A DNA stretch of 25,404 nt from a virus. A program made the translations under genes and the position numbers. The DNA lies in IMG/VR virus record IMGVR_UViG_3300033273_000550, positions 166,013 through 191,416 of that record, one strand, 5' to 3'. The notes under the pieces were generated by a model, which was not told the DNA's origin, made no database searches, and saw only the letters and a program-made list of their open reading frames with translations. Shown here in pieces: positions 5,594 to 25,404 of this stretch; within the stretch, counting starts at the first letter, position 1, and each line of letters starts with the position of its first letter.

Positions 5594-5595
5594 AA

Positions 5596-10037: not shown

Positions 10038-10288
10038 GTTATATCATAGGATCTAAATGTATAGGAACAAAAGATGGTGCTTGTATAGCTGTTTGCCCAG
10101 TAGATTGTATAGAGGAAGGAGAGGATAGCATGTATATCGACCCTGAAACTTGCATTGACTGTGGTGCTTGTGTGCCAGAATGCCCAGTTGAAGCTATCTT
10201 CGATTCTGAAGAAGATGCAATAGCAGCCGGTGAACTAGAGGCTGTAAAAAATAACTATAAATTTTACAATTTAAAATATGAAAACTAA
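10034..10288 (+). CDS. Dicluster (7Fe/8Fe-type) ferredoxin
   Basis: C.GTKDGACIAVCPVDCI and YIDPETCIDCGACVPECPVEAI. ATGA-coupled to queE. Confidence 0.93.
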   Translation: MSYIIGSKCIGTKDGACIAVCPVDCIEEGEDSMYIDPETCIDCGACVPECPVEAIFDSEEDAIAAGELEAVKNNYKFYNLKYEN

Positions 10289-10886
10289 AAATTTTATTTT
10301 ATTACTTAGTTTAGTTTTACTAAGCTGTACTAAAACACAACCAATCGTAGCTCAAGATTTAAGAGAAAGAGTTGAATTTGATATAGACGGATTATTTTCT
10401 GGAGTTTATTCTGAAGTGTTAGAGCAACCATTAGAGGTTACCTATATAGTTCCTTGTCCGGATGGAGATGCTTCAAGAAGTGGATTAGATTTTTACGAAG
10501 ATGATAATATTCATACATCAGATGATGATGATTATAGTAATAACGTTTGGGATAAAGGACATTTAGCTCCTGCTGCAGCATTTGCTTGTGATAGAGAAAC
10601 AATTAAAAAAACTTTTACTTATTTAAACTCAGCCTTACAGCATCAATCACTAAATAGAGGAGCTTGGAATCGATTAGAATCGGTCGAAAGAGGAATGGCT
10701 ATCTGGCATGAAGTAGAAGTAAGAATAGAAGTAATATTTGATGAAAATAGTCAAGTACTTCCATCCGGCGCTACAGTTCCCAAAGCTTTTAGAAAAACTA
10801 TAAAAGCTGGAGATATCACAAAAGTATTTTATTTCCCTAATATAGATACATCAGGTACTGATTGGGAAGATTATTTAGTTAATTAA
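10278..10886 (+). CDS. DNA/RNA non-specific endonuclease (NucA/Serratia-type beta-beta-alpha-Me), predicted lipoprotein
   Basis: DKGHLAPAA, TFTYLN..LQ..SLNRGAW..LE and VPKAF.K. N-terminal MKTKN-hydrophobic-LLSC lipobox. Confidence 0.88.
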   Translation: MKTKNFILLLSLVLLSCTKTQPIVAQDLRERVEFDIDGLFSGVYSEVLEQPLEVTYIVPCPDGDASRSGLDFYEDDNIHTSDDDDYSNNVWDKGHLAPAAAFACDRETIKKTFTYLNSALQHQSLNRGAWNRLESVERGMAIWHEVEVRIEVIFDENSQVLPSGATVPKAFRKTIKAGDITKVFYFPNIDTSGTDWEDYLVN

Positions 10887-10887
10887 T

Positions 10888-11067
10888 ATGAGCGATAAAG
10901 AATTCGTACAATGGTTTAGAGGGTTCGTAGAAGGAGCTCATCACTATAATATCACCCCTAAACAGTGGGATGATTTAAAAGATAAGTTGTCATTAGTAAA
11001 GAAGGAAGGTCCATCATCTTTTGCCTATCAATTGGACAAATCTTGGGTTACTGATATAGCTTATTAG
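10888..11067 (+). CDS. 59-aa hypothetical phage-type protein (not in the ORF track)
   Basis: MSDKEFVQWFRGFVEGAHHYNITPKQWDDLKDKLSLV..., ATG 10888 to TAG 11065-11067. It fills the gap exactly. Confidence 0.75.
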   Translation: MSDKEFVQWFRGFVEGAHHYNITPKQWDDLKDKLSLVKKEGPSSFAYQLDKSWVTDIAY

Positions 11068-11098
11068 GTTATATTTTGTTTAATTTAAATTTTAATTA

Positions 11099-13609
11099 AT
11101 GAGAAATCTCGTTACAATGCTGTTAACATTCTTAACAGTAGGAGCTTACGCTCAACAAGTAGCTGTTAAGGATACAGTCCTGACACAGCAGCTAGAAGAG
11201 GTAGTAGTCTCATCAAGGGTAATTGACGTTGCAAAAGAACGAATTACACCTGTTGCAGTATCTACTATTTCCGCTAGTGACATTTCTTTAAAAACAGGAA
11301 ACTTAGAGTTCCCTGAAATTATGAACAACACCCCAGGTGTTTACGCTACTAAGCAAGGAGGAGGATATGGGGATTCTCGTATCTCACTTCGAGGTTTTGA
11401 TCAGCGTAATACATCTTTCTTAATTAACGGTCAACCCGTTAATGACATGGAAAACGGGTGGGTGTACTGGTCTAACTGGCAAGGATTAACGGACGTTGCT
11501 TCCGGAATCCAAATCCAAAGAGGACTTGGTGCATCAAGACTGGCTGTCCCTTCTGTGGGTGGTACAGTATCTATCTTCACTAAAAGTGCGGATAAAAGAC
11601 AAGGCGGTTCATTTACCCAAGTAGTAGGTAACGACGGGTATACTAAAACGACTGCTGCTTACAACACTGGATTAAATGAAAATGGATGGGCTACATCTGT
11701 TTTATTAAGTAAGTGGGCTGGAGATGGCTATATTTACAACACCAGTGGTGAAGGTTGGACTTACTTCTTTGCATTAGGATATGCACCAGAAGATTCTGAT
11801 CATGCTATTAACTTTTCTTTATTAGGTGCAGGACAATGGCACCACCAAAGAGATGTTTGGGTATCTATTAGAGATTACCAAAACTTTGGTGAAGAAGGAA
11901 TTGATAGAAGATGGAACTCAAACGGTGGTATTTTAAACGGAGAAGAATATAGCCTTAGAAGAAACTTCTATAACAAACCATTAGCTACAATTAACTGGGA
12001 TTGGGACATTTCTGATAATGTTCAATTAAATACATCCCTATATGGTTCAGCTGGTAGAGGTGGTGGAACAGGTCCAAGAGGTAGAAACTACTACAACTCG
12101 GAAACTGATATCTTACCATTTAGAAAAGACCTTACTGAACATTATTTAGAAAATGGTAGAGGTTCAAGATTGGCTAACGGTTTCATCGATTTTGATGCAA
12201 TCGTTCAGTACAATAGAAATAACACTCAAGGATATGATGGAGGAATCTCTGCATATCAAGGAGCTTTAATCGCTTCTAACGGGTACAATGATGATAACGT
12301 AAATAGAGCTGGTCTAGTAAGAAGAGCTTCTATGAACTCTCATGATTGGGTAGGTGCTATTTCAAACTTAGATATTACTGCTGGTAAGATGAGATACTCT
12401 ATCGGAGTAGATTTAAGAAACTACAAAGGTTACCATTATAGAGTACTAAATGATCTATTAGGATTTGATGCTTATTACTCTACTGGTAATAAAAACTCAG
12501 AAGGACAGATTATTGAATCACTAGTTGAAGCAAGTCCATTTCAAAACACTGGAATTAGAGGACCTAAAATCGATTACTACAATATCGGATATGTAGGTTG
12601 GCAAGGTGTTAATGGTTTAGCTGAATACTCAGGAGATGCATTAACTGCTGTAATTCAAGCAGGTCTTTCTAATCAATCATTCCAAAGAGAAGATTTATTT
12701 GATCAACCATCTAACTACCTTTCTGAAAAGAAGAACGTTGGTGGTGGGTATGTTAAAGGTGGCGCAAACTACAACCTAGATGCTAAGTCTAATGTATTCT
12801 TTAACGCAGGGTATATTTCGAGACAGCCTAATTTCGATGCAGTATTCCCTAACTACGCTAATAACGTTAACCCAAATCTACAGAATGAAGAAATTAAATC
12901 TTTAGAACTTGGATACGGATTTATCACAGACAAAGTTAAATTAAACGTAAATATCTACTCTACTAACTGGGGTAATAGATTTGTAACCAGATCTCTTACT
13001 AACCAGCAAGGTGTTGATGGATTTGCTCAATTTAGAGATATCGATGTAACTCACAACGGTGTTGAGATTGAAAGTTCATACAAACCATCTAGTAGAACTA
13101 CATTCAAAGGAATGCTATCAATTGGTGATTGGGAATACGATAATAACTTCGAAGCAGAATTATTTGACGAGAACCAACAATCAATCGGTACAGGTACTTT
13201 ATATACTAAAGGAGCTAAAGTAGGGGATGCTGCACAATTTGTAGCTAACTTTGCAGTCGATCAGAGATTCGGCTCTAAACTTAAAGCTGACCTATCATAT
13301 AGATTCGTTGACGGATTATATGCTGATTATTCAATTACTGATTCAGCATTTACTTCTCCAGATAACGATGGAGCACTTAAATTACCTTCTTATGGTCTTG
13401 TTGACCTAGGAGCTACTTTCTTTGCAGGAAGAGGGTGGAGTTTAAGAGCTAATGTTAATAACGTATTAGACACAACTTATATTGCTGAGTCTAATTCAAA
13501 TATCCATGCAAGTGCAACTTCAACTACATGGAATGGAATTGATGTAAGAAACTCGGTATGGTTCGGATTCGGAAGAACTTGGAACGTATCTCTTAAGAAA
13601 AGATTCTAA
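11099..13609 (+). CDS. TonB-dependent outer-membrane receptor (Bacteroidota type)
   Basis: Signal peptide, LEEVVV TonB-box-like segment, plug ISLRGF..N...LING.PVND, beta-barrel pattern, terminal GRTWNVSLKKRF. Confidence 0.95.
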   Translation: MRNLVTMLLTFLTVGAYAQQVAVKDTVLTQQLEEVVVSSRVIDVAKERITPVAVSTISASDISLKTGNLEFPEIMNNTPGVYATKQGGGYGDSRISLRGFDQRNTSFLINGQPVNDMENGWVYWSNWQGLTDVASGIQIQRGLGASRLAVPSVGGTVSIFTKSADKRQGGSFTQVVGNDGYTKTTAAYNTGLNENGWATSVLLSKWAGDGYIYNTSGEGWTYFFALGYAPEDSDHAINFSLLGAGQWHHQRDVWVSIRDYQNFGEEGIDRRWNSNGGILNGEEYSLRRNFYNKPLATINWDWDISDNVQLNTSLYGSAGRGGGTGPRGRNYYNSETDILPFRKDLTEHYLENGRGSRLANGFIDFDAIVQYNRNNTQGYDGGISAYQGALIASNGYNDDNVNRAGLVRRASMNSHDWVGAISNLDITAGKMRYSIGVDLRNYKGYHYRVLNDLLGFDAYYSTGNKNSEGQIIESLVEASPFQNTGIRGPKIDYYNIGYVGWQGVNGLAEYSGDALTAVIQAGLSNQSFQREDLFDQPSNYLSEKKNVGGGYVKGGANYNLDAKSNVFFNAGYISRQPNFDAVFPNYANNVNPNLQNEEIKSLELGYGFITDKVKLNVNIYSTNWGNRFVTRSLTNQQGVDGFAQFRDIDVTHNGVEIESSYKPSSRTTFKGMLSIGDWEYDNNFEAELFDENQQSIGTGTLYTKGAKVGDAAQFVANFAVDQRFGSKLKADLSYRFVDGLYADYSITDSAFTSPDNDGALKLPSYGLVDLGATFFAGRGWSLRANVNNVLDTTYIAESNSNIHASATSTTWNGIDVRNSVWFGFGRTWNVSLKKRF

Positions 13610-13623
13610 CATTAAAAATAATT

Positions 13624-13654
13624 AAGGGGAGCCCTTGCGGCTCCCTTTTTTTTT
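13624..13654 (+). terminator. Rho-independent terminator after the TonB receptor gene
   Basis: AAGGGGAGCC-cttgc-GGCTCCCTTT hairpin running into a T9 tract (13646-13654). Confidence 0.9.
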
Positions 13655-13662
13655 CATATATT
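13635..13662 (+). promoter_or_regulatory. Putative promoter TTGCGG-16-TATATT overlapping the terminator
   Basis: TTG in the terminator loop at 13635, TATATT 13657-13662, ATG at 13668. Confidence 0.55.
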
Positions 13663-13667
13663 ATAGT

Positions 13668-14069
13668 ATGGCAAAAAAGGTTGTATTAACGTGGGAGGAT
13701 ATAAACTCTCTATTGGATAAAATTCACAAACAGACACAAGGAAAAATAGATATGGTTACGGGTATACCGAGAGGTGGTACCTTACTGGCGATAATGTATT
13801 CGCATAGGTTTAATGTTGCTTATTTACCTTATATGAGTAACCATTATGAAAGACTTCTAATAATTGATGATATAGCAGATTCAGGAATTACATTTACAAA
13901 GACTAGTAAAGAGTTTCCTAATTGTAAGTATGCTGCTATTCATTATAAAAATACTTCAACTTTTAAACCTGACTTCTACGGATTAGAAATACCAGAAGAT
14001 TATGGATGGATCGTTTATCCGTGGGAAAAAAAAGATTCCAAACCTATACAGGATTATTTGGATAATTGA
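13668..14069 (+). CDS. Type I phosphoribosyltransferase, Gpt (xanthine-guanine PRT)-like
   Basis: GIPRGG, PRPP loop LIIDDIADSGIT, and WIVYPWE. The TTG start at 13635 in the track lies inside the terminator, so ATG 13668 is preferred. Confidence 0.88.
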   Translation: MAKKVVLTWEDINSLLDKIHKQTQGKIDMVTGIPRGGTLLAIMYSHRFNVAYLPYMSNHYERLLIIDDIADSGITFTKTSKEFPNCKYAAIHYKNTSTFKPDFYGLEIPEDYGWIVYPWEKKDSKPIQDYLDN

Positions 14070-14086
14070 GTAAAAAATCATATATT
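14058..14086 (+). promoter_or_regulatory. Putative promoter TTGGAT-17-TATATT for folE and the downstream block
   Basis: TTGGAT 14058-14063, 17-nt spacer, TATATT 14081-14086. Confidence 0.7.
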
Positions 14087-14104
14087 ATATTAAATAAAGT
14101 TTAT

Positions 14105-14785
14105 ATGGGTGATAGTGTAAAAAACGAAATTGAAATTGTAAAGACAGGTTTTGCTAATGGTGTAGCACCTGGTTTTCCATTAACTGAAGATGAGAAATGG
14201 AATGTAGTAGAAGAAGCAGCTGAAGCTTATGGTAAGTTTTTAGATGCATTAGGATGTGATTGGAAGAATGATCCTAACTCAGCTGATACTCCTAGAAGGG
14301 TAGCAAAAGCTTATGTTTTTGATCTTTGGAAAGGTAGATACGATGCTATGAGTGATATTACAGCATTTCCTTCTGATGGATATGACGGTATAGTACAAGA
14401 AAGTAACATACCAGTTACCTCTATGTGTAGTCACCACCACCAGACCATAGCTGGTAGAGTATCGATAGCTTACGTTCCTTCTAAAAATGGTAAGGTTGTA
14501 GGATTATCTAAGTTAAATAGAATTGTAGAGCATTTTGGTAGAAGAGGAGCTATACAGGAGCAACTTACTGTTGCTATTCATAATGCTATCCATGTTATAT
14601 GTGAAGGTAATTTAGGAGTAGCAGTAATGATAGATGCAACTCATAACTGTGTTAGTTGTAGAGGAGTAAAGCATTCAGGAGCATCAATGCAAACAGCTAA
14701 ACTATCAGGTTGTTTTCTAGAAGAAGATGCTGCTAGAGCAGAGTTTTATAAAAATATTGAACTTTCTAGCAAATGTCGAATCTAG
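14105..14785 (+). CDS. folE: GTP cyclohydrolase I
   Basis: TPRRVAK, SMCSHH, VVGLSKLNRIV, IQEQLT and ATHNCVSCRGV. ATG 14105 lies downstream of the promoter. Confidence 0.95.
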   Translation: MGDSVKNEIEIVKTGFANGVAPGFPLTEDEKWNVVEEAAEAYGKFLDALGCDWKNDPNSADTPRRVAKAYVFDLWKGRYDAMSDITAFPSDGYDGIVQESNIPVTSMCSHHHQTIAGRVSIAYVPSKNGKVVGLSKLNRIVEHFGRRGAIQEQLTVAIHNAIHVICEGNLGVAVMIDATHNCVSCRGVKHSGASMQTAKLSGCFLEEDAARAEFYKNIELSSKCRI

Positions 14786-15231
14786 AACACGATATTAGAC
14801 CTTGGGGGGAGTATCAAGTACTCTATGATGGAGAAGACTGTAAAGTAAAACGTATTACAGTTTTACCCGGTAAAAAACTATCACTTCAGTATCACTATAA
14901 AAGAGATGAACTTTGGCAGATCATCTCAGGTAAAGCAAAGTTAGTTATAGGATCTGAAGATCTTAAGTATGAAGAATTTGAGTTGCTTCCTCAAGATGAT
15001 TTCTTTATATTTAGAAAACAACATCACCGTATAGAGAATATAGGTGAAGAAAATTTAGTCTTTATTGAAATACAAACAGGTGACTATTTCGGTGAAGACG
15101 ATATAATAAGATTACAAGATGATTTTGGTAGAGTAGACTTTGATCATTTAAAAGATTGGGTTGATATAAAAGAAGAACAAAAAGCCAACAAAACTGATTG
15201 GTGGAAAAAAATGAGTAAAGATGGCAATTAA
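14773..15231 (+). CDS. Mannose-6-phosphate isomerase type II-like cupin
   Basis: RPWG.Y.VL, LSLQYH..R.E.W and EIQTG.Y.GEDDIIR..DDFGR. Confidence 0.85.
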   Translation: MSNLEHDIRPWGEYQVLYDGEDCKVKRITVLPGKKLSLQYHYKRDELWQIISGKAKLVIGSEDLKYEEFELLPQDDFFIFRKQHHRIENIGEENLVFIEIQTGDYFGEDDIIRLQDDFGRVDFDHLKDWVDIKEEQKANKTDWWKKMSKDGN

Positions 15232-15403
15232 ATTAGACGACCATATAGTAGAAATAGAAGGTATTAGGTATATACCTTATGAAGTAGCAGTAAAAGCAAT
15301 CTCTGAGATAGGAGAAGATCAGATTAATAGAGCTGATGAACTTCTAAATAAACTAGCTTCTGACTTAAATTTAACATTTAAAAATATAGATAAGAATGAT
15401 TAA
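15221..15403 (+). CDS. Hypothetical protein
   Basis: 60-aa ORF overlapping both neighbours. Confidence 0.7.
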   Translation: MAIKLDDHIVEIEGIRYIPYEVAVKAISEIGEDQINRADELLNKLASDLNLTFKNIDKND

Positions 15404-16214
15404 GATAGCTCACGAATCTCCTAAGAGTATATTTGAAGACGTACAAAGATTTACCGATTATGATTATGCGTTAGTTCATTTATTTGAAGAGGATGAGGAG
15501 TATCTTAAAATCTTTGAAAAAGCTGTTAGAAAAGGAAGAGAAGTAATTTTAGATAATTCTATTTTTGAATTAGAAGAAGCTTTTGATGCAGATAAATTTG
15601 CTAAGTGGGTGGATCATTTAAGACCTACCTGGTATATTGTACCGGATGCTTTAGAAGATTCTGTTAAGACATGTAAACAGATGGCTTCTTGGGATAAGAG
15701 GTATTCTGAGTTACCTGGTAAAAAGATAGGAGTAGTTCAAGGTAGAACATATGAGGAAATCGTAAACTGTTACAAGTTTATGGATAATTCTGACGTTGAT
15801 ATGATTGCTATTTCCTTCGACTATTCATACTATACTAAATCAGTACCTCATCCTAATAAGTATGTTAGTTGGATGTTAGGTAGAGTTAAGTTATTAGGAG
15901 ATCTACTTAAGGATGGAGTAATAAACGTAAATAAGAAGCATCATTTATTAGGATGTGGGTTACCGCAAGAGTTTCAATATTACAAGCATGCTGATTATAA
16001 TTGGTTATACTCTCTTGATACTTCTAATCCTGTAGTTCACGGTATTAAGGGAATTAGTTATGCCGATCAAGGACTATGGTCTAAAGAATCTCAAAAACTA
16101 TTTGAACTGATTAACTCAGATGTAAGTATAGACCAGTTAAGTGTTATTAAAAATAATATTCAAAAATTTAGATGGTTTGCAAATGGACAACAAGATGTGG
16201 ATAGCGTTTTTTAG
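15396..16214 (+). CDS. dpdA: TGT-fold / DpdA-like guanine transglycosylase (divergent, DpdA3-like)
   Basis: TGT-like motifs ILDNS.FE, VPD, GVVQG, HHLLGC and SLDTS. Short, lacks the tRNA-TGT Zn domain, and sits in a que gene context. Confidence 0.75.
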   Translation: MIKIAHESPKSIFEDVQRFTDYDYALVHLFEEDEEYLKIFEKAVRKGREVILDNSIFELEEAFDADKFAKWVDHLRPTWYIVPDALEDSVKTCKQMASWDKRYSELPGKKIGVVQGRTYEEIVNCYKFMDNSDVDMIAISFDYSYYTKSVPHPNKYVSWMLGRVKLLGDLLKDGVINVNKKHHLLGCGLPQEFQYYKHADYNWLYSLDTSNPVVHGIKGISYADQGLWSKESQKLFELINSDVSIDQLSVIKNNIQKFRWFANGQQDVDSVF

Positions 16215-16731
16215 TCAGACAGGATCTGAAATTGCCGATATTGCTGAGTCGTTAGGTAGATGGCCTGATAGAATAGTAACTAACGATAGACCAGAGCATC
16301 TTAGAACTATAGATGCTAGAATAGAAAAACAAGGTTACTTTACTTTCAGCAATAAACCTGATGTAGAAGAGTATGCTGACTTACTTACGTACTTTCCGGA
16401 CGCTATCATAACTCTACATGGTTGGTTAAGAATAATGCCTCCTGAGATTTGTGAAAGACATAGAATATTTAATGGTCATCCAGGATTAATAACTGAATAC
16501 CCAGAACTAAAAGGAAAAGATCCTCAGATAAGAGCTTACGAAGGCATTAAAGCTGGAAAATATCTGACTGCTGGAGCAGTTTTACACCACGTAACTGCTG
16601 GAGTTGATGAAGGTAAGGTTATTATGGAAGAATATTTTAATGCGCAAGATTTGTCTCTTGATGAATTATTTCGTATATTGAGAGATAGAAGTTTATATAT
16701 GTGGTGTAATTTTCTTAAAAAGGTTTTATGA
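16183..16731 (+). CDS. PurN-like formyltransferase; candidate preQ1 N-formyltransferase (DpdN-like)
   Basis: FFSQTGSE, LHGWLRIM, IFNGHPGL..YP and GAVLHHVTAGVDEGKVI match the GAR transformylase fold with catalytic N/H/D retained. Overlaps the dpdA-like gene. ATG 16183 preferred. Confidence 0.85.
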   Translation: MDNKMWIAFFSQTGSEIADIAESLGRWPDRIVTNDRPEHLRTIDARIEKQGYFTFSNKPDVEEYADLLTYFPDAIITLHGWLRIMPPEICERHRIFNGHPGLITEYPELKGKDPQIRAYEGIKAGKYLTAGAVLHHVTAGVDEGKVIMEEYFNAQDLSLDELFRILRDRSLYMWCNFLKKVL

Positions 16732-17273
16732 TTACAAGAATAGCATTAGTAGGAGCAAGTAGTACAGGAAAGACTACAGTTTATGAATTACTTAAGTCTA
16801 AGTTACCTAAGTATGAATTTATTAATGAATCAACCCGTTCTGTCGGTCAATATGGATTTCCTATCAATGAAAACGGAACAGATGCTACCCAATTAGCTAT
16901 CAGTTCTTTTCATTTAGAGGCATTACTTAATCCTTATAATCTTGTATTAGATAGATGTTATATGGATCTAGTAGCATACTCTAGATTTATGCCTAATATA
17001 AGCAAAGAAACGTTAAATTACATCTTAGATACATGGAAACGTGTTAAAGGCGAGTATACTCATTATGTGTATTTTCCTATTGAATTTGATTCTGTAGACG
17101 ATGGAGTAAGGAGTATCGATGAGCGATGGAGAAAGGATATAGATGATGAGTTTTTTGAAATGCTACAAGATGTGAGACAACCTTATTTAACTGTGACTGG
17201 ATCACCGATGCAAAGAGTAGAACAAATTATAGATTTTATAGAAAATGGGAAAACAACTACAGCTATTCTCTGA
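16728..17273 (+). CDS. P-loop kinase (AAA_28/NadR-like, dNMP-kinase-like)
   Basis: ALVGASSTGKTT, LVLDRC..D.VAY and DDGVR. ATGA-coupled to the formyltransferase. Confidence 0.8.
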   Translation: MITRIALVGASSTGKTTVYELLKSKLPKYEFINESTRSVGQYGFPINENGTDATQLAISSFHLEALLNPYNLVLDRCYMDLVAYSRFMPNISKETLNYILDTWKRVKGEYTHYVYFPIEFDSVDDGVRSIDERWRKDIDDEFFEMLQDVRQPYLTVTGSPMQRVEQIIDFIENGKTTTAIL

Positions 17274-17826
17274 TCAAGAGATTGGACCTTGCAGCAATCA
17301 TGCTAATGAATACGTTCCGTTTGTATCGGAAGTAGAAGAGTTTAATACTACATTTGGTAAACCTAATAATTATGAACCAACCATCCCTGAAGAAAAAGAA
17401 TGGAAATTCGTATACGACTTTATACTCGAGGAACTTGAGGAGTATAGAGAAGCGTGCGAAAGAGGAGACATCGTGGAAGTTTTGGATGCTTTGTGCGACA
17501 TTGCTTATGTTTCCATTGGGAACGGTACTATGCTACATGGCCTTAAAGATAAGATATGGCCAGCATATCTCGAAGTACAAGCGTCTAATTTATCGAAGGC
17601 TTGCACATCTGAAGAAGAAGCAATTGAAACCGTCAGCGTACGAGCTAAGGAACAAGGTGAGGAGTGTCATTATGAAAAGGTAGGAAAAGTTTTTGTAGTA
17701 TATAGAACTAGAGATAGAAAAGTAATGAAATCAGTTAATTATTTTAGACCTGATTTGACTAAGTTTTTTCAAGAGGAGGAAATAGATAAATGTAGACCTA
17801 ATTTTGATCCCGGTACAATAATTTAA
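17245..17826 (+). CDS. MazG-like / PRA-PH all-alpha NTP pyrophosphohydrolase
   Basis: V.EF..TFG, ILEELEEY, EVLDALCDIAYV and EVQASNLSK. Confidence 0.87.
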   Translation: MGKQLQLFSDQEIGPCSNHANEYVPFVSEVEEFNTTFGKPNNYEPTIPEEKEWKFVYDFILEELEEYREACERGDIVEVLDALCDIAYVSIGNGTMLHGLKDKIWPAYLEVQASNLSKACTSEEEAIETVSVRAKEQGEECHYEKVGKVFVVYRTRDRKVMKSVNYFRPDLTKFFQEEEIDKCRPNFDPGTII

Positions 17827-17836
17827 ATATAATAAT

Positions 17837-18748
17837 ATGTCAGAAGTTAAAAATTATCAAGAAGTAGTAGATATTGCATCTAAGCATTTAGGTAAAGTAG
17901 GAGGCGATGGATACTCAGATCAATATAATAGAGATTTATTGGTTAAGGTACCTAGGTTCTTAAATAGAGAAGGTTACGGATTAACATCAGATAGTTTTGT
18001 TGGTGTTGATGTTTGGAATGCTTATGAAGTATCTGCTATTACTGTAAAAGGTCAACCAGTAGCCGGTATGTTAAAGATAGTATGTCCAGCTGATTCCGAA
18101 TTTCATGTTGAATCTAAATCGATTAAGTTATATTTAAACTCTTTTAATATGACTCAAATTGGTGAAACTGCTGCCGATTGTATTAAAGCAATCGAAGCTA
18201 CTGTAAAAAGAGATTTAGATGAGTTACTAGAAACTGAGACAACTGTATCTTTTTATGCAAGTAGTGAAGAGGCGGAAGTTCTATCTTTCGAAGATTATCA
18301 GGATGTAGCAGATGTAGTAGATTTAGATCAAATAGACTTTACTTCTTTTAAATCAGATGCTTCTCAATTGAAGATTGAGGATACTGATGAGGAAGCTAAG
18401 GTAGTAAAATTAAGATCTAATCTTCTTAGATCAAATTGTAGAGTTACTAACCAACCGGATTGGGGAGATGTATTTATTAAACTTAAAGGTAAACATCTTC
18501 CAGCAGCAGACTCCTTAGCTAAGTATATTGTTAGTCATAGAACCGTTAGTCACTTTCATGAAGAGATATGCGAAATGGTTTTTAAACATATTTCTGATGC
18601 ATATGAACCTGAAGAGCTGATGGTAGCTTGTCTATATACTAGGAGAGGAGGTATAGATATTAATCCTGTAAGAGCAACTCATAGTAGTTTAATACCTGAA
18701 TTCTTTACTAACCCTGATTATTTAATTCAGAAGACTCTAAGACAGTAA
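17837..18748 (+). CDS. queF: NADPH-dependent preQ0 reductase, bimodular (type II) QueF
   Basis: GVDVWNAYE, QueF motif VESKSIKLYLNSFN, catalytic SNCRVTNQPDWG, FHEEICE and YTRRGGIDINP. Confidence 0.95.
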   Translation: MSEVKNYQEVVDIASKHLGKVGGDGYSDQYNRDLLVKVPRFLNREGYGLTSDSFVGVDVWNAYEVSAITVKGQPVAGMLKIVCPADSEFHVESKSIKLYLNSFNMTQIGETAADCIKAIEATVKRDLDELLETETTVSFYASSEEAEVLSFEDYQDVADVVDLDQIDFTSFKSDASQLKIEDTDEEAKVVKLRSNLLRSNCRVTNQPDWGDVFIKLKGKHLPAADSLAKYIVSHRTVSHFHEEICEMVFKHISDAYEPEELMVACLYTRRGGIDINPVRATHSSLIPEFFTNPDYLIQKTLRQ

Positions 18749-19092
18749 TGAAGGCTGGGAAGATTTGGGGGAATACCGAGATGATTCATAAAAATGGAGT
18801 TTTAGAATTCCATAGGATTGAATTTAACGCTGGATATAAATGCTCCGAGCATGAGCATAAATTTAAGTGGAACGGTTTTTTTGTTGAATCTGGTAAAATG
18901 TTAATTAGAGTTTGGCAAGATGATCAAAATTTAGTTGACGAAACGATTCTTAACGCAGGTGAATTCACTATGGTTAAACCAGGTAAATTTCATCAGTTTG
19001 AAGGATTAGAAGACGGTGTTGCTTTTGAACTGTATTGGGCAGAGTTTAATCATGAAGATATTTATAGAAGAACAGTAGGTTCAAAAAGTTAA
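18748..19092 (+). CDS. Small cupin (sugar-isomerase-like)
   Basis: KIWG, CSEHEH..KWNGFFVESG and VKPGKFHQF cupin motifs. Confidence 0.8.
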   Translation: MKAGKIWGNTEMIHKNGVLEFHRIEFNAGYKCSEHEHKFKWNGFFVESGKMLIRVWQDDQNLVDETILNAGEFTMVKPGKFHQFEGLEDGVAFELYWAEFNHEDIYRRTVGSKS

Positions 19093-19094
19093 TT

Positions 19095-19358
19095 ATGGCA
19101 GTAGAAAAAACTGAAGTAAAAGAATTGATTGCAGTTAGAGTCCCACCAGGAGATAACTGGGAATTAGTAATAGATAAGGAAAACATTATTGAAGGTTTAG
19201 TTCAAGCATTAACTCAATATATGCGTAAAACTAAATTTAAAGGTCACTATAGATTAGAACCTTTAAATGGTAAACTATTTGCTATCAAAGAAACTGAAGT
19301 AATTGTTCCGGAACCAGAACCAGAGGTATGGGACCTTTACGGTGAAGGTTCGTACTAA
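19095..19358 (+). CDS. Hypothetical protein
   Basis: 87-aa ORF tightly packed between neighbours; no motif recognised. Confidence 0.7.
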   Translation: MAVEKTEVKELIAVRVPPGDNWELVIDKENIIEGLVQALTQYMRKTKFKGHYRLEPLNGKLFAIKETEVIVPEPEPEVWDLYGEGSY

Positions 19359-19942
19359 TGTCAAGATTCTTCAAAAAATTATCCTATAAATACGATTACT
19401 TGAATCTTGAATTAGAAGAAACTCAAGAACTCTCCGATGAATATCAGGTTGAATTCAATAAATTATTTGGGAAGTATTTTATAGATAAAAATTCGGAAAT
19501 GTGGGTTAATGAAGCCACAGGAGAAATCAGAAAAGAAAGACCAGAGAAAGAAGAAGAAAAAGAAGTAAAACCTAAAAAGGTACCGAATAAGAAACTAAAA
19601 GAGCTCTATAAAACTCTTTCAAAGTTTGTTCATCCTGACAAAGGAGGTAATACAGAACTTTTTAATAAGGTTAAAGATTCATACGAGAATGAAGATTTAT
19701 TTTCTTTACTGAAGTTTGCTGGAGATTATGAACTTAAGTATGAGTATGATGAAAAAGATAAAGAGTTAATTAGTAGTTCAATTAAAAGAGTAGAAGACAA
19801 AATTAATACCTTACAGAATACTTTAGCCTGGCATTACTGTACAGGAGATAAACACAAAAAAATTACAGTTATTAAAATGCTTGAAAAACAGTTAAATATA
19901 GAAGTAAAACAGGAAGATATACCTAAAGAGTTACATTTATGA
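19358..19942 (+). CDS. J-domain-containing protein
   Basis: LKELYKTLSKFVHPDKGG..ELF..V..SYE, which is J-domain helix II-HPD-helix III. Confidence 0.75.
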   Translation: MSRFFKKLSYKYDYLNLELEETQELSDEYQVEFNKLFGKYFIDKNSEMWVNEATGEIRKERPEKEEEKEVKPKKVPNKKLKELYKTLSKFVHPDKGGNTELFNKVKDSYENEDLFSLLKFAGDYELKYEYDEKDKELISSSIKRVEDKINTLQNTLAWHYCTGDKHKKITVIKMLEKQLNIEVKQEDIPKELHL

Positions 19943-20826
19943 AATTTATAACCGGTGAAGACTTTCAAAGCTTGTGCGGCACTCAGATAAGTATAGAACC
20001 CTTTACACCTTATGAACTTAAATCAGATATAGTTATTAATGCTTGGGATTATGATTTTACTGATTATGATAATAGTGAATTAGTTTATGTCAATATTGAT
20101 TTAATAAAAGGACCAATCAAGCCTGAAAATTTAAATGAAGAGTCTAAAAACACGTTAGTATTCGATAAAGAAGTTAATATAGTAGATAGTTTAAAAAAAT
20201 TTAAAAATCCATTTAGGTTAGTATTACATAATAATGACGCCGGTTTTGATGAATCTAATTTAGAACTTCTAGACATACCAAATTGTAAAAAGATATATAC
20301 GCAAAACGTTTTAATAGAACACGAAGATGTAGTACCTATTCCAATCGGTTTAGGTAATTCTTGCTGGCATTACGGAGATCAAACAGCTTTTGATAATATT
20401 GAACCCAGTGAAGAAAAAACAGAAGATATCTTTTTTAATTTCACGATAGAGGGAGGATGTCGAGACGTTAAGAGACCTGACTGTTTTAATAAATGTACTC
20501 AATTAGGAATACCTTGGATTAAATCGTTAGATCAGAGAAGTTATATAGAAAAACTTAACACTTATAAGTTTATTATCTCTCCTGAAGGTAACGGTATAGA
20601 TTGTCATCGTACTTGGGAAGCTCTTTACTTAAAGACTATCCCTATTGTTGACAAGAATAAAGTTACAGAGCATTTCAGTAAACTTTTTCCTATGGTTTTA
20701 GTTGATGACTGGAATACCTTTAAATTAGATGATTTAAACGGTGTTTACGAAAAAGCTGACTGGTCTAATTATGAATTGCTTGATTTTAATAAATTTATTT
20801 CTTATATTGGTATAATATGGCAGTAA
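19939..20826 (+). CDS. Exostosin-like (GT47-related) glycosyltransferase
   Basis: PIPIGL and YKFIISPEGNGIDCHRTWEALYLKTIPIV. Confidence 0.8.
   Translation: MKFITGEDFQSLCGTQISIEPFTPYELKSDIVINAWDYDFTDYDNSELVYVNIDLIKGPIKPENLNEESKNTLVFDKEVNIVDSLKKFKNPFRLVLHNNDAGFDESNLELLDIPNCKKIYTQNVLIEHEDVVPIPIGLGNSCWHYGDQTAFDNIEPSEEKTEDIFFNFTIEGGCRDVKRPDCFNKCTQLGIPWIKSLDQRSYIEKLNTYKFIISPEGNGIDCHRTWEALYLKTIPIVDKNKVTEHFSKLFPMVLVDDWNTFKLDDLNGVYEKADWSNYELLDFNKFISYIGIIWQ
20780..20808 (+). promoter_or_regulatory. Putative promoter TTGATT-17-TATATT embedded in the upstream CDS
   Basis: TTGATT 20780-20785, 17-nt spacer, TATATT 20803-20808, ATG at 20817. Confidence 0.65.
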
Positions 20827-21713
20827 AAAGAATATTTGCGTTTGGAGACAGCTTTACTCAAGGTGAGGGAGCTAATTTAAAATTATGTAGAGAGATAGAA
20901 GCTATTTTCGTAAAAGAAAGAAGTAAGTCTAAACGTGCTCATGGTTTAGCTTTAGTAAGTGATATAAATCGTAAACTATCATGGACTCAACACGTAGAAG
21001 ATGATTTAGGAATATACGTTGATAATCAAGCTGAAACAGGTGCAAGCAACCAAAAGATATTCCAGAAAGTTTTTGATGTTGACAAATGGGCTAAGTTTAA
21101 TTCTGATGATTTAATTATTGTAGCATGGAGTTCTATTTTAAGAGATCCTATGCCGTTTCTACCCAATGTGTATCAAGAATCCTCTCCTACCGGTATTGGA
21201 TGGTCAATAAAAGAATTAGCAGGAAAAGATGCAGAAAGATTATTTTTAGAGACCTACCCTGATAAGTTAGATAAATCTGAAAAAAACTATTTAATTGAAA
21301 CGTTAGTTCCTTTTATGAAGGAATTCTTTAAAGATTATATAGTGGATATTCACGACGGTTCACTACATAATTATCTTACAGTTAATTACATTTACTTTTT
21401 ACAGAAGTTTTTTGAATCTAGAGGCATTAGGTATATGATGGTAGATGCTTTTGAAAATACTACTGCATATAAAAGTTGTAATCCTAAGTTATGGAAAAGT
21501 ATAGATACAGAGTACTATATGGGATTCGATAAAACTACCTTATGGGATTTGTTAAATGATAAGTGTGGTGAAAAAGATGTATGGGAAGATGAAGAACTTC
21601 GTAGTAAAACAGATGGAATAAAGCATCATCCTAATATGGAAGGATATAAAATTATAAGTGAATTCGTATTAGAATATCTTAAAGAAACTTTTTTTAAGAA
21701 AACAGCAATATAG
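20817..21713 (+). CDS. SGNH/GDSL hydrolase-like protein
   Basis: IFAFGDSFTQG, N.A..GASN and HHPNMEGYKII. Confidence 0.75.
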   Translation: MAVKRIFAFGDSFTQGEGANLKLCREIEAIFVKERSKSKRAHGLALVSDINRKLSWTQHVEDDLGIYVDNQAETGASNQKIFQKVFDVDKWAKFNSDDLIIVAWSSILRDPMPFLPNVYQESSPTGIGWSIKELAGKDAERLFLETYPDKLDKSEKNYLIETLVPFMKEFFKDYIVDIHDGSLHNYLTVNYIYFLQKFFESRGIRYMMVDAFENTTAYKSCNPKLWKSIDTEYYMGFDKTTLWDLLNDKCGEKDVWEDEELRSKTDGIKHHPNMEGYKIISEFVLEYLKETFFKKTAI

Positions 21714-21742
21714 TTTCTCGTCTGAGATTATTTTCTTATATT
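21714..21742 (+). promoter_or_regulatory. Putative promoter TTTCTC-17-TATATT (weak -35) for nuclease-polA-metK
   Basis: TATATT 21737-21742 in a 48-nt intergenic gap, preceded by the same T-rich spacer as other copies. The -35 deviates from TTG. Confidence 0.5.
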
Positions 21743-21761
21743 TAAGTAATAAAACGGTTAT

Positions 21762-22292
21762 ATGGAAAGTGAATATACTTTAACTATGTATGAGGAAGAT
21801 TTAGGATTTCCTCGAAAAACTTTAGAAAAATATATTAGAGACCCTCAAGCAGCCAGAGACGCAATAATGTACGGCGGTAAACCCTTTTTAACTGAAGAAA
21901 TTATTAAAAATTGGGCTTGTCATTACTTTAGAAGAGATATGAAAGTAGCAAGGACTACTAATAATTTTGGCTTTGATGTAGTTAGTGATGATGGTGAAAT
22001 TTTTATTGAAGTTAAAAGTAGTTGGAAACCTGATTCTAAATACGTATCTTTTAAAAGTATAGGTCAGAAGAAAGATGCTAACGGTGAGTATGCATTTACT
22101 CATATAGCTTTTTATTCTCCTTTATTAGATCCGAATGGAGTTGTTCTTTTTACTAGAAAGCAATTTGTAGAACAAGTTGTTTTACCCCCAGCTGGTAAAT
22201 TAAATATAAAAATGGATCTAAATGAAGGTTATGATAATAATACTTGTCATAAGTCTTCTGTAGCATTTTATAATAATATTAAATGGATGTAA
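21762..22292 (+). CDS. PD-(D/E)XK restriction-endonuclease-like nuclease
   Basis: E.II..W helix followed by GFDVV......IEVKS (D...EXK). Confidence 0.65.
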   Translation: MESEYTLTMYEEDLGFPRKTLEKYIRDPQAARDAIMYGGKPFLTEEIIKNWACHYFRRDMKVARTTNNFGFDVVSDDGEIFIEVKSSWKPDSKYVSFKSIGQKKDANGEYAFTHIAFYSPLLDPNGVVLFTRKQFVEQVVLPPAGKLNIKMDLNEGYDNNTCHKSSVAFYNNIKWM

Positions 22293-24619
22293 TGCAATTA
22301 GAAAAAAAGTACTATACCGTCCAAGACTCAGAGACGTTAAAGTTAATGTTTCAACACATACAAGAGTCAGATATTATCGCAGTCGATACTGAGACTTCAG
22401 GTCTTAATCCTAGAAAGAATAAAATTGTAGGTTGGTCACTCTCAGGAGATGAAGGTATTGGATTTTATATTCCTACTTTAGTGTGGAACTTTGAGAAAGG
22501 TGAGCTAGAGTTGCAGACGATAGATGGTACTTCTACTGAAACTATCTCTAAAAATTTACTAAAAGCGTTAAAAGGTAAAAAATTAGTATTTCATAATGCT
22601 TCTTTTGACGTTCAGTTTATTAAGAACTATTTCGGTATCGATTTGTTACCTGATGTTTGGGTTGATACTGGACTACTTGTTCATACAGTTTATGAAGAAG
22701 GAGCTTTTGGCTATGGTAATCCGTTTGGATTAAAGTCAATTGCTATTATGAATCAAGAAGCTCTAGGGTTAGATGTAGAAAAAGCAGCTAACGAAGAGCA
22801 AATAGAACTAAAAGAAAGTATAAAGAAAAATGGAGGCTCAGTTACTAAAGAAAGTTTTGAAATTTATAAAGCTGATCTTGATATTCTTAGCAAGTATGCC
22901 AGTGCAGATACTGACCTTACTTTACGTATCTGTAACTTATATCTTAAAAAACTTAAAGAAGAAAAATTAGAGAAGTTCTTCTTTGAAGATGAAGTTATGC
23001 CTATCTACCGTGAAGTAACTGTCCCTATGGAAGCTGCAGGTGTTGATTTAGATGTAGAACTTATAGAACAGATTCATGAGGAGATAGTAAAAGATCAAGA
23101 AGAAAATAAAAAGATTGTGATGAAATCTTTACTAGCTCTTTCTGAAGTAAAAGAATGGGTAGTAGCTACTTCTATTACTAACTTTCCTGTATCTCATAAA
23201 GGTAACTGGGCTCAAAGGTTAGTACAAAGATACTCGCTACCTTTACCTAAATCAGAGAAAACCGGAAAATACTCTCTTACTCAGAAGAACATAGAGCAGT
23301 TAGAAGACTCTCCTGTAAAAGAATTCTTACTTACCGGTAATGAAGACTTATTAGAAGACCTTGAAAAAGCTAGGATATCTATGTCGCTATGGAAGGAGTC
23401 TAATGACGGTGAATACATTAATATACAGTCTAAAAAGCACCTTGGAGAGATAGTTTTTGACTATATGGGAATTCAACCTAAAGTTGCTGGTGCTAATACT
23501 AAATCCGGTAGAGCTAAGTTTGATATGGATATGGTTAAGGATTTAGCAAAAGATTATACTTGGGCTGAAAATCTAAGAATTTATAATAAACTACTTAAAA
23601 TTAAATCTACGTATGTAGATAGATTTAGAGATAGAAATGAAGATGGTAAGTACTATTTTTATTTTAAGCAGAACGGTACTGTGTCTGGTCGATACGGTTC
23701 TGATGCTCAGCAACTACCTAAACCTCTAGAAGAAGGAGAAGATGCTCCGATTATTATGAAGTATGTAAACATAGTGAGAGCATTTTTAACTGCCGGTAAA
23801 GGTAGAAAAGTAATTGATGCAGATTACGAATCACTAGAACCTCATTGCTTTGCTTCAGTATCTGGAGATGAGAAGCTTCAAGAAATATTTAATAACGGTT
23901 GGGATTTCTATTCATACGTAGCTATACAGACTGAAAAATTAGAAGGAGTCTCTGCTGATAAAAAAGCTGATAATTACCTTAAAAAGCTAGATCCTGTTAA
24001 GAGAAATAAAGCTAAAGCTTATTCGTTAGGGGTTGCCTACGGAATGGAAGCTTATGCTCTTAAAATGACTTTGGGAGTCGATCAAAAGACTGCAGAAGGT
24101 TTAATTAAAGGTTACTTAGATGGATTCCCAGGTCTAGCTAAATGGAGAGAAAACTCAAGGAGACAGGTTAAGGATAACGGTTTTATTAAAAATTATGTTG
24201 GTAGAGTAAGACATTTACCTAGAGTTAAGAAGATCTATGAAAAGTTTGGTGAGCAGATGATGGATTGGAGATTTAGAAAAGATCTTGAGAATCAAGGATA
24301 TAGTAGAGACGATGTCATTAAAGTTTATAGAGATTATAGAAACGGATTAAATAACTGTTTAAACTTTCAGTTACAGTCTTTAGCAGCAGCGGTAGTAAAC
24401 AGAGCAGCAGTACAGATAAATAGAGCTGCTAAGGAGATGAATATTGATGCTTACGTACAAGCTCAAGTTCATGACCAGTTAATTATAAACGTAGATGAGA
24501 ATCAAGCTGAGGAATTTGCTCCTGTAGTACAGAAGATTATGGAAAATACTACTAAGCTTCCTGGCGTAACCTTAAAAGCACCTCCTGAAATAGCTGATAA
24601 CTGGAGAGATGGACATTAA
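22283..24619 (+). CDS. polA: Family A DNA polymerase with 3'-5' exonuclease and no 5'-3' exonuclease domain (phage type)
   Basis: Exo I AVDTETSGL, Exo II FHNASFD, Exo III YASAD; motif A DADYESLEP, motif B R.KAKAYSLGVAYG, motif C QVHDQL. The start may be ATG 22292. Confidence 0.95.
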   Translation: MDVMQLEKKYYTVQDSETLKLMFQHIQESDIIAVDTETSGLNPRKNKIVGWSLSGDEGIGFYIPTLVWNFEKGELELQTIDGTSTETISKNLLKALKGKKLVFHNASFDVQFIKNYFGIDLLPDVWVDTGLLVHTVYEEGAFGYGNPFGLKSIAIMNQEALGLDVEKAANEEQIELKESIKKNGGSVTKESFEIYKADLDILSKYASADTDLTLRICNLYLKKLKEEKLEKFFFEDEVMPIYREVTVPMEAAGVDLDVELIEQIHEEIVKDQEENKKIVMKSLLALSEVKEWVVATSITNFPVSHKGNWAQRLVQRYSLPLPKSEKTGKYSLTQKNIEQLEDSPVKEFLLTGNEDLLEDLEKARISMSLWKESNDGEYINIQSKKHLGEIVFDYMGIQPKVAGANTKSGRAKFDMDMVKDLAKDYTWAENLRIYNKLLKIKSTYVDRFRDRNEDGKYYFYFKQNGTVSGRYGSDAQQLPKPLEEGEDAPIIMKYVNIVRAFLTAGKGRKVIDADYESLEPHCFASVSGDEKLQEIFNNGWDFYSYVAIQTEKLEGVSADKKADNYLKKLDPVKRNKAKAYSLGVAYGMEAYALKMTLGVDQKTAEGLIKGYLDGFPGLAKWRENSRRQVKDNGFIKNYVGRVRHLPRVKKIYEKFGEQMMDWRFRKDLENQGYSRDDVIKVYRDYRNGLNNCLNFQLQSLAAAVVNRAAVQINRAAKEMNIDAYVQAQVHDQLIINVDENQAEEFAPVVQKIMENTTKLPGVTLKAPPEIADNWRDGH

Positions 24620-24629
24620 AATTTAAAAT

Positions 24630-25404
24630 ATGATAAGAACAGCAGAGGTAGTAACACCTAAACATCCGGACAAAATATGCGACAGAATATCAGATGCTAT
24701 ATTAGACGCATGTCTTCAACAAGATCCAAATACAAGAGCAGCGATAGAAACTATGGGTGGTCATGGTATCATAACAGTTACTGGAGAACTTACCACAACA
24801 GCATATGTAGAGATTCCTGATATAGTTAAATCAGTTTATGGAGAAGATATAGGTATTCAGGTAAATATAGTTAAACAGTCACCAGAAATATCTCAAGGAG
24901 TTGATACTGGCGGTGCAGGTGATCAAGGAATAATGATCGGTTACGCTTGTAATGAAAATGAAGATTATGTTCCTCAAGAATATTATTTAGCAAGAAAACT
25001 AGCTCAAGAGATATATCATAGATATCCATATGATGGCAAAACCCAGGTAACTATTGATGGAGAGAAACTTAGAGTAGTTGCTTCATTCCAGAACGCTCCT
25101 TCTTCTGAATTAGAAGAGATTGTTAGAGGGTACTTTGCTCAATACTCTAAATATACGTTAGAAGAAGTACATTGTAATCCTGCTGGAGATTGGAATATAG
25201 GAGGATTTGTTGCTGATACAGGATTAACTGGTAGGAAGTTAGCTGTAGATAATTATGGACCTAGAGTTCCTCTTGGTGGAGGAGCATTTAGCGGTAAAGA
25301 CTGTACTAAAGTAGATAGGTCAGCTGCTTATATGGCTAGAAAGATTGCTGTAGATTTTCTTAAGGAATGGGATGCTGAAGAAGTGTTAGTTAGATTAGCT
25401 TACG
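24630..25404 (+). CDS. metK: S-adenosylmethionine synthetase, compact form, 3'-truncated by the window (not in the ORF track)
   Basis: Translated from ATG 24630: TAEVVTPKHPDKICDRISDAILD, QSPEISQGVD, GAGDQGIMIGYA, DGKTQVT, DTGLTGRKLAVDNYG and GGGAFSGKDCTKVDRSAAYMAR. Confidence 0.96.
   Translation, partial: MIRTAEVVTPKHPDKICDRISDAILDACLQQDPNTRAAIETMGGHGIITVTGELTTTAYVEIPDIVKSVYGEDIGIQVNIVKQSPEISQGVDTGGAGDQGIMIGYACNENEDYVPQEYYLARKLAQEIYHRYPYDGKTQVTIDGEKLRVVASFQNAPSSELEEIVRGYFAQYSKYTLEEVHCNPAGDWNIGGFVADTGLTGRKLAVDNYGPRVPLGGGAFSGKDCTKVDRSAAYMARKIAVDFLKEWDAEEVLVRLAY

Follow-up and report, generated by a model that had tools for sequence, protein, structure and literature searches.

In the DNA of Flavobacterium phage immuto (Immuto 2-6A), deoxyguanosine (dG) is completely replaced by formyl-dPreQ1 (fdPreQ1), as measured by liquid chromatography-mass spectrometry (LC-MS; Cui, Hutinet et al., NAR 2023, PMC10516641). 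The names DpdA3, for the divergent transglycosylase, and DpdN, for the formyltransferase, were coined in the same study, where the DpdA3 phages CP220, phiST and immuto are described as completely modified, while systems of the DpdA1/DpdA2 type, shown to act on DNA, modify 0.1-30% of G. Its authors proposed that all such modifications are post-replicative, since a DpdA homologue is always present; this proposal rests on the presence of the homologue and not on an assay, and DpdA3 was without activity in their Escherichia coli system, where DpdA1 and DpdA2 were tested (PMC10516641). For the Campylobacter phages, an earlier proposal of a modified dGTP is noted by Hutinet et al. (2019, PMC6884629), and free 2'-deoxy-7-amido-7-deazaguanosine (dADG) nucleoside has been reported in CP220-infected cells; a literature search for later work on DpdA3 enzymology or on a modified-dGTP route found nothing. 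Here, we analyze a gene module in the final 25.4 kb (25,404 nucleotides, hereafter the window; ~32% GC) of the 191,416-bp IMG/VR viral contig IMGVR_UViG_3300033273_000550. Gene content and protein homology identify it as a diverged DpdA3/DpdN fdPreQ1 hypermodification module of an uncultured relative of immuto, and comparison with related loci suggests, with a probability of roughly 0.55, that the base is swapped at the level of the free nucleotide, before replication.

An earlier note on this DNA, made from its sequence alone, had singled out the genes between 13668 and 24619 and framed them as a candidate pre-replicative G-replacement system analogous to Z-genomes; the gene set had already been described as DpdA3/DpdN (PMC10516641), in a paper where the kinase and the phosphoribosyltransferase (PRTase) go unmentioned. 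The genes themselves are present where the note had placed them, the start at 13668 included, and all lie on the + strand, as do all sizeable open reading frames (ORFs) of the window. Genes were identified with Pfam, NCBIfam and PHROGs, and those of the module and of the pathway to preQ0 and preQ1 are the following, with E-values in brackets.

3623-4474, +: QueC, 7-cyano-7-deazaguanine synthase of the preQ0 pathway (PF06508, 2.1e-37); also found 5' of DpdA3 in related loci
8807-9274, +: QueD, 6-carboxytetrahydropterin synthase of the PTPS family (PF01242, 2.3e-14); conserved in related loci
9240-10037, +: QueE-like radical SAM enzyme, 7-carboxy-7-deazaguanine (CDG) synthase (PF04055, 8.2e-07); syntenic with the annotated QueE of immuto
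10034-10288, +: 2x[4Fe-4S] ferredoxin, directly after the QueE-like gene
13668-14069, +: Gpt/XGPRT-like purine PRTase (PF00156, 4e-08)
14066-14785, +: FolE, GTP cyclohydrolase I, first step to preQ0 (PF01227, 2.9e-43)
15396-16214, +: transglycosylase of the DpdA3 subfamily, a TIM barrel of tRNA-guanine transglycosylase (TGT) fold, 272 residues (no Pfam match; identified by fold and homology)
16195-16731, +: DpdN, PurN-like formyltransferase, predicted to make the formylamino group of fdPreQ1 (PF00551, 1e-07)
16728-17273, +: AAA_28 P-loop small-molecule kinase (PF13521, 7.5e-17 over 160 of 164 positions)
17245-17826, +: PRA-PH/MazG-type all-alpha NTP pyrophosphohydrolase of the MazG/HisE superfamily (PF01503, 6.1e-10)
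17837-18748, +: bimodular QueF, preQ0 to preQ1 reductase (QueF_N, 7.6e-28; QueF, 2.1e-17; TIGR03138, 7.8e-72, below its cutoff)
22283-24619, +: PolA, family A DNA polymerase with a 3'-5' exonuclease domain (PF00476, 9e-58; PF01612, 3.2e-12)

The QueC, QueD and QueE-like genes thus sit upstream of the interval on which the earlier note had concentrated. The run of five genes that it had described, from the TGT-like gene to queF, is borne out by the junctions: DpdA3 and DpdN overlap by 20-32 nt (the DpdN ORF opens at 16141, with a likely start at 16183 or 16195), DpdN and the kinase by 4 nt, and the kinase and MazG by 29 nt, and a gap of 10 nt separates MazG from QueF. Likewise, Pfam matches confirm the Gpt-like PRTase ahead of FolE and the PolA downstream.

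Immuto has the same gene families, arranged in almost the same order, among them the PRTase, the NTP pyrophosphohydrolase, a gene annotated as 'thymidylate kinase' and the downstream PolA, with shared synteny and protein identities of 40-79% (lowest for the PRTase and highest for MazG). At the DNA level, in contrast, a single stretch of 426 bp can be aligned between the two phages. They also differ in the position of MazG, which follows the kinase in the window (an arrangement also seen in the related locus L019) and precedes DpdA3 in immuto, and in the extra genes of the window phage, which comprise two cupins, the ORFs at 19939-22292, a TonB-dependent receptor and a carbamoyltransferase. The immuto genome measures 160 kb against 191 kb here, and it is for immuto that the DNA chemistry was measured. 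The module is predicted to make preQ1 and, by orthology with immuto, very probably gives DNA with fdPreQ1 in place of G.

What appears to be new here is the company that DpdA3 keeps: across unrelated lineages, it travels with a small-molecule kinase and usually with a deoxynucleoside triphosphate (dNTP) hydrolase, unlike the DNA-acting DpdA1. Our survey covered 80 IMG/VR loci, with DpdA3 proteins that share 50-76% identity with the one of the window; these loci correspond to 61 lineages after dereplication at 95%, and lineage counts are given among those with enough flank. DpdN was found in 48/50 lineages, the kinase beside DpdA3 in 42/46 and QueF in 41/42, and the gene order DpdA3-DpdN-kinase-QueF is nearly fixed. 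In the immuto-like (close) group, defined by a DpdA3 identity of at least 62%, the kinase and the window-type MazG are present in all 23 lineages and the PRTase in 18, while PolA lies 3' of the module in all 23. The far group is T4-like, with UvsW/UvsY neighbors, and has the kinase in 8 of 11 lineages, the window-type MazG in none, and the PRTase and PolA in one each.

DpdA1/DpdA2 phages such as 9g and CAjan, together with the bacterial DpdA/DpdB systems, resemble the DpdA3 phages in having the preQ0 pathway and a TGT-fold transglycosylase. For comparison, the same scan, reaching 10 kb, was applied to 17 IMG/VR DpdA1 loci, a phylogenetically narrow control set whose DpdA1 is 40-100% identical to that of 9g. 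Within this distance, a kinase homologue was found at none of the DpdA1 loci (0/17) but at 67 of the 80 DpdA3 loci, and an NTP hydrolase homologue at 1/17 and 60/80 loci, respectively. The homology queries were derived from DpdA3 loci and are biased to that extent; the search for a small ORF with an N-terminal Walker A motif, which is free of this bias, gave 0/17 for DpdA1 and 66/80 for DpdA3. Of the co-occurrences on which the earlier note had staked its mechanism, that of the kinase is therefore very strong, extending across distant lineages and involving non-orthologous kinases. For the hydrolase the outcome is divided, as some dNTP hydrolase is usually adjacent to DpdA3 but its fold varies and the window type is confined to the immuto-like group. 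The PRTase is frequent in the close lineages but nearly missing from the far ones, and it is absent from CP220 and from the Bacillus phage discussed below. The comparative evidence hence lends partial support to the mechanism as it had been put forward.

The base-exchange enzyme of the module is predicted to be DpdA3, with DNA or a free deoxynucleotide as its candidate substrate. The Pfam TGT profile does not recognize this protein. It is 74% identical to DpdA3 of immuto and 43% identical to the CP220 homologue, and hhalign matches it to CGPG_00065 of phiST (99.1%, E = 1e-18), so that homology places it in the DpdA3 subfamily, alongside proteins of phages whose G replacement has been measured to be complete. 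With an alignment of 130 diverse homologues, AlphaFold2 gave a model with a predicted local distance difference test (pLDDT) score of 96.7, whereas a single-sequence model was unusable (44.9). Using this model as a Foldseek query, the top hits are all tRNA-guanine transglycosylases with a probability of 1.0, the top 50 are all TGT or DpdA, and Salmonella DpdA is also listed. Structural alignment with VIA-align gave Z-scores of 18.2 to 1iq8 and 17.9 to the Z. mobilis TGT, over 234-238 residues with a root mean square deviation of 3.1-3.3. The TGT/DpdA-like character that had been noticed from the sequence is thus confirmed as a TGT-type barrel fold.

Three aspartates, D53 (in LDNS), D84 and D208 (in LDTSNP), are invariant across the 130 DpdA3 homologues. 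The first of these aligns with the LDSG motif of 9g DpdA1, in a weak hhalign match that is restricted to this putatively catalytic LDNS/LDSG stretch. No canonical TGT was found elsewhere in the 191-kb genome. Clustering of the DpdA3 family as a whole gives 3153 protein clusters at 90% identity or 1562 clusters at 50%, and the family occurs in at least 535 IMG/VR stretches. Its acidity (median pI 5.5) and the loss of the CxCxxC zinc motif (0/130) were considered as signs of a small-molecule substrate, and this argument was dropped because the DNA-acting 9g DpdA1 shares both features (pI 5.6, no motif).

The P-loop protein, judged by its profile matches and motifs, belongs among the small-molecule kinases of nucleoside/nucleotide type, and is a candidate kinase for a modified deoxynucleoside or deoxynucleotide. 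It is 68% identical to gp68 of immuto and 33% identical to gp057 of CP220. Compared with the PDB, its profile matches a deoxynucleoside kinase (5.4e-06), the NadR ribosylnicotinamide kinase and a deoxyguanosine kinase (1e-03), with weaker matches to thymidylate kinases; small-molecule kinases are matched along the entire length, and the matches contain no DNA-dependent ATPases. Invariant positions include the P-loop GxxxxGKTT, a DR motif (D75-R76), an arginine of the LID (R128) and several aromatic residues.

The MazG-type protein is a candidate dGTP hydrolase. It matches a PHROG nucleotide pyrophosphohydrolase (6.8e-29), is 79% identical to gp63 of immuto, and carries an invariant EExxE...D motif, the signature of all-alpha NTP pyrophosphohydrolases, together with a conserved C-terminal extension. 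The best PDB sequence matches of the PRTase are purine and xanthine-guanine PRTases (top match 9.7e-08), and the NCBIfam xanthine PRTase model is matched below its cutoff (2.3e-10); identities are 40% to gp60 of immuto and 29% to CGPG_00045 of phiST. Its likely role would be the salvage of guanine released by the exchange to GMP. The PolA is 67% identical to that of immuto.

The assignment of the formyltransferase to DpdN is supported by its PurN-like domain, its catalytic residues and the full FolE-to-QueF pathway encoded with it. The protein is 52% identical to DpdN of immuto, its profile finds its best PDB matches in glycinamide ribonucleotide (GAR) transformylases (2.7e-15), and the Asn-His-Asp of PurN is kept as N93/H95/D138, invariant in 32 homologues. 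An equally invariant FSQTGSE loop aligns with SGxGSN of PurN. Within it, an invariant Glu corresponds to what we take to be the phosphate-binding Asn of PurN, and a simple phosphate site in DpdN is disfavored because of this replacement; retention of the 5'-phosphate loop hence does not discriminate in favor of a nucleotide substrate. Natural fusions of DpdA3 with DpdN (447 residues) and with QueF (531-568 residues) are found among the proteins P0159, P0209, P0273, P0274, P0275 and P0276, one of which is a DpdA3 with an intein/LAGLIDADG insertion. These fusions fit a direct hand-over of free preQ1 to DpdA3, whether the exchange takes place on nucleotides or on DNA.

In a related contig (L040, 5293-8329), DpdN is absent and a 318-residue kinase ORF has a C-terminal extension with below-cutoff matches to GNAT acetyltransferases. 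This extension has no PDB match and no similarity to the GNAT-like tail of P0205, and the locus may conceivably represent an acetyl-preQ1 variant.

The distant lineages show DpdA3 in other surroundings. In Campylobacter phage CP220, an HD+AAA_33 fusion, DpdA3 and the AAA_28 kinase form a three-gene islet between the tail sheath and tail tube genes, apart from the remaining que genes. Cellulophaga phage phiST has the order FolE, MazG, DpdL, AAA_18 P-loop protein and DpdA3, with the P-loop gene abutting DpdA3, while its PRTase homologue lies beside a T4-type dNMP kinase near ribonucleotide reductase, far from the deazaguanine genes. A DpdA3 member of Bacillus phage BSTP8 (hhalign 99.3%) stands between a differing P-loop/DR-motif protein and PolA. 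In two uncultured-phage contigs (L093 and L096/L097), MazG, a PF18909 'dATP/dGTP diphosphohydrolase N-terminal' protein (2e-17), DpdA3 and PolA follow one another in series, so that a MazZ-type gene is placed directly 5' of DpdA3. MazG is found two genes 5' of DpdA3 in L098, and a dUTPase/DCD-fold gene near DpdA3 in L092; genes of the latter fold adjoin DpdA3 in the far group too. A row of DCD-like gene, DpdA3 and AAA_28 kinase occurs in the P0264 lineage (genes 2213-7180), together with a Vut_1/YhhQ-type queuosine-precursor transporter, QueC and a FolE2-type cyclohydrolase, suggesting that this phage may import the precursor base besides making it.

Under the reading that we prefer, the MazG-type hydrolase would convert dGTP to dGMP; the same step would fall, in other lineages, to a MazZ-type, dUTPase/DCD-fold or HD-domain enzyme, of which the HD enzyme would give dG. 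DpdA3 would put preQ1 in place of the guanine of the free deoxynucleotide (or perhaps of deoxyguanosine), DpdN would formylate the aminomethyl group and the AAA_28 kinase would phosphorylate the product. A cellular nucleoside diphosphate (NDP) kinase would complete the triphosphate, and the phage PolA would insert the modified dNTP, so that G would never enter phage DNA. The released guanine would be turned into GMP by the Gpt-like PRTase, and hence into GTP for FolE. What we observe is which genes are present, that DpdA3 has the TGT fold and that the linkage is conserved; past preQ1, we infer the substrates. Polymerases tolerate 7-substituted 7-deaza-dGTPs.

This scheme shares its logic with the hydroxymethylcytosine (hmC) system of T4 (gp56 dCTPase, gp42 dCMP hydroxymethylase and gp1 dNMP kinase) and with the Z-genome system (MazZ, PurZ, DatZ and DpoZ): a hydrolase removes the canonical dNTP while providing the dNMP, the base is remade at the monophosphate, and a tolerant kinase and the phage polymerase do the rest. 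To our knowledge, all worked-out complete base replacements in phage DNA (T4 hmC and the Z genomes) are pre-replicative. The likeness would be one of mechanism, by analogy, and not of family membership, as the proposed pathway exchanges the whole base via a transglycosylase whereas the T4 and Z-genome enzymes build or decorate the base on the nucleotide; in addition, the window hydrolase is not of the PF18909 family, and the window kinase is of the AAA_28 family and not of that of the T4 dNMP kinase.

The nucleotide-level route is favored because recurrent, non-orthologous kinases adjoin DpdA3, because dNTP hydrolases of three folds, among them the MazZ-type domain, recur beside it, and because both kinase and hydrolase are lacking near DpdA1. 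It is further favored because replacement reaches 100%, because free dADG nucleoside has been reported in infected cells and because DpdA3 failed to modify DNA in E. coli. We give even odds to the more specific proposal that DpdA3 is the first TGT-fold enzyme to exchange the base of free dGMP or dG (with preQ1, yielding dPreQ1-MP and guanine), and that complete replacement by fdPreQ1, 2'-deoxy-7-deazaguanosine (dDG) or dADG would thus be pre-replicative, of the T4/Z-genome type.

Several observations weigh against an exchange on free nucleotides. All evidence on the insertion route is comparative, and we know of no TGT-fold enzyme that acts on a free nucleotide, the characterized members all using tRNA or DNA. 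Nor is the AAA_28 kinase family tied to DpdA3, since about 95 records from Streptomyces, Rhodococcus and Bacteroides phages have a member of it in a replication module that lacks DpdA3. Neither kinase nor hydrolase was seen at the locus of L094, and no kinase lies within 6 kb in the L093/L096 lineage. A fusion of DpdA3 with the kinase was sought and not found, the partners being limited to DpdN, QueF, intein, homing-endonuclease and DUF3310. The window MazG has no significant match in the PDB by sequence or profile, and its specificity cannot be read from its sequence. It matches PRA-PH only and does not qualify as a member of the MazZ family; a scan of the whole 191-kb genome for PF18909, the MazZ-type N-terminal domain, gave no match at E-values up to 10. 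This type of MazG is confined to the immuto-like group; of two complete T4-like genomes, one encodes a small MazG at a distance from the cluster, and no MazG/PRA-PH is detectable in the other. None of the three hydrolase folds that accompany DpdA3 across lineages is universal. To this must be added the narrowness of the DpdA1 control set.

In the published model, PolA makes G-containing DNA and DpdA3 swaps every guanine of the polymer for preQ1, with DpdN formylating in DNA or on the free base beforehand. The kinase, MazG and PRTase would then be a supply line, for guanine salvage to GTP for FolE and for management of the dNTP pool. We consider this account possible but doubtful. It agrees with the use of polymers by all characterized TGT/DpdA enzymes, a role that the authors also give to DpdA3 (PMC10516641), and no bulk sequence feature separates DpdA3 from the DNA-acting 9g DpdA1, both being acidic and without CxCxxC. 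A Gpt-like PRTase suits guanine salvage, the kinase and PRTase together could merely refill GTP, and neither the presence of AAA_28 kinases in many DpdA3-free phages nor the lack of a universal hydrolase, MazG or other, is at odds with it. However, the model leaves unexplained the non-orthologous kinases beside DpdA3 in at least five unrelated phage lineages, including the tail-gene islet of CP220, as well as the absence of a kinase near DpdA1. A need for GMP phosphorylation would predict a guanylate kinase of host type, and none was seen. Moreover, the known post-replicative DpdA systems reach at most ~30% of G, compared with 100% in the DpdA3 phages, and DpdA3 was inactive on DNA in E. coli.

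Two further explanations assign other tasks to the PRTase or to the P-loop protein. The PRTase might join preQ1 or formyl-preQ1 to phosphoribosyl pyrophosphate (PRPP); the kinase would raise the product to the diphosphate, the phage ribonucleotide reductase would convert this to the deoxy form, and PolA would insert it, while DpdA3 would merely clear residual G from DNA. This entry route has a precedent in toyocamycin biosynthesis, where a PRTase turns a 7-deazapurine base into a nucleotide, and it would suit both the overlap of the PRTase gene with FolE at the head of the module and the ribonucleotide reductase large subunit gene located just 5' of the window in the same genome. It is nevertheless improbable, as the PRTase is absent from CP220, from the Bacillus phage and from most far-group loci (1/11), and lies distant from the deazaguanine genes in phiST, whereas DpdA3 is universal and CP220 is fully replaced. 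In the other explanation, the P-loop protein is no nucleotide kinase and powers base exchange by DpdA3 on DNA in a DpdB-like manner; its gene tightly adjoins DpdA3 in many lineages, and in the Salmonella Dpd system the bacterial DpdA reportedly requires the ATPase DpdB. This we regard as highly improbable, given the full-length match to nucleoside/nucleotide kinase profiles and the presence of the DR motif, the LID arginine and aromatic residues of acceptor-site type; in addition, DpdB is of another fold class, and the phage DpdA1/DpdA2 clusters are without such a partner gene.

The locus is a diverged addition to a described system that is very common in environmental phages, and the central question that it bears on is how a phage rids its DNA of every guanine. 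If the exchange on free nucleotides is true, it would be a new reaction class for the TGT fold, would open enzymatic access to 7-substituted 7-deaza-dGTPs, and would explain the failure of DpdA3 in the E. coli reconstitution.

Other DpdA3 loci offer observations of their own. In the Bacillus subtilis phages of the BSTP/BSP group, the DpdA3-family protein is annotated as hypothetical (BSTP8, L004, 16-6276). QueD, QueE and FolE lie upstream of DpdA3 in BSTP8 and no QueC is present among the 16 annotated genes in the 10.1 kb examined, so that a CDG-derived and possibly complete replacement of guanine is predicted for these phages. The uncultured contigs with the MazG-PF18909-DpdA3-PolA block are siphovirus-like (L093, 5304-8198; L096, 4913-9008; L097, 3-3939), and in L096 the 6 kb of flank on each side are devoid of que genes. 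In the far group, a 208-residue protein starting with MCSIFG follows QueC (L087, 10102-10725, with homologues in 11 loci) in clusters that also have QueF and DpdN; this protein looks like a class II glutamine amidotransferase, and a dCTP-deaminase-like gene lies between its gene and QueD.

The remaining features in and around the module of the window are listed below.

13624-13648, +: terminator-like hairpin of intrinsic type (10-bp stem with 6 GC pairs, T-run), between the TonB-receptor gene and the module
14773-15231, +: cupin of the ManC C-terminal type (PF01050, 1e-29)
15221-15403, +: ORF60, an ORF of 60 residues
18748-19092: second cupin-domain protein

The hairpin is the only strong terminator-like site on the + strand in 10000-25404 and lies directly 5' of the PRTase gene. 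From there to DpdA3, each gene overlaps the next, by 4 nt (PRTase/FolE), 13 nt (FolE/cupin), 11 nt (cupin/ORF60) and 8 nt (ORF60/DpdA3). A promoter scan was uninformative, with 57 sites against 62 expected. The two cupins flank the core module; the first is found in 10/80 related loci, between FolE and MazG/DpdA3, and the second in 0/80.

Upstream of the hairpin, at 10278-13609, an Endonuclease_NS gene (1.6e-21), whose product has a lipoprotein signal peptide, precedes the gene of an 836-residue TonB-dependent receptor. The receptor has a signal peptide, a GC content of 0.39 compared with ~0.31, and no counterpart in the related loci (0/80), while Endonuclease_NS lies within the cluster in 13/31 lineages. 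Together, the nuclease and the receptor look like host-derived cargo, perhaps a pair for the uptake of extracellular DNA or nutrients. A role of Endonuclease_NS as a T4-style degrader of host DNA feeding dGMP was dropped because its lipoprotein signal peptide implies that it is exported.

Around QueC, the stretch 708-7971 encodes a methyltransferase, an HtrL/YibB-like protein, an APS-kinase-like P-loop protein, a 2OG-Fe(II) oxygenase and a 559-residue carbamoyltransferase of NodU/CmcH type, the last of which lies between QueC and QueD in 11/80 related loci. These genes could serve a further modification step or an unrelated auxiliary metabolism. At the other end of the window, a SAM synthetase (MetK) gene at 24630-25403 runs off the end of the contig; since CheckV calls the record linear and 100% complete, the rest of this gene may, if the genome is permuted, lie at its opposite end.

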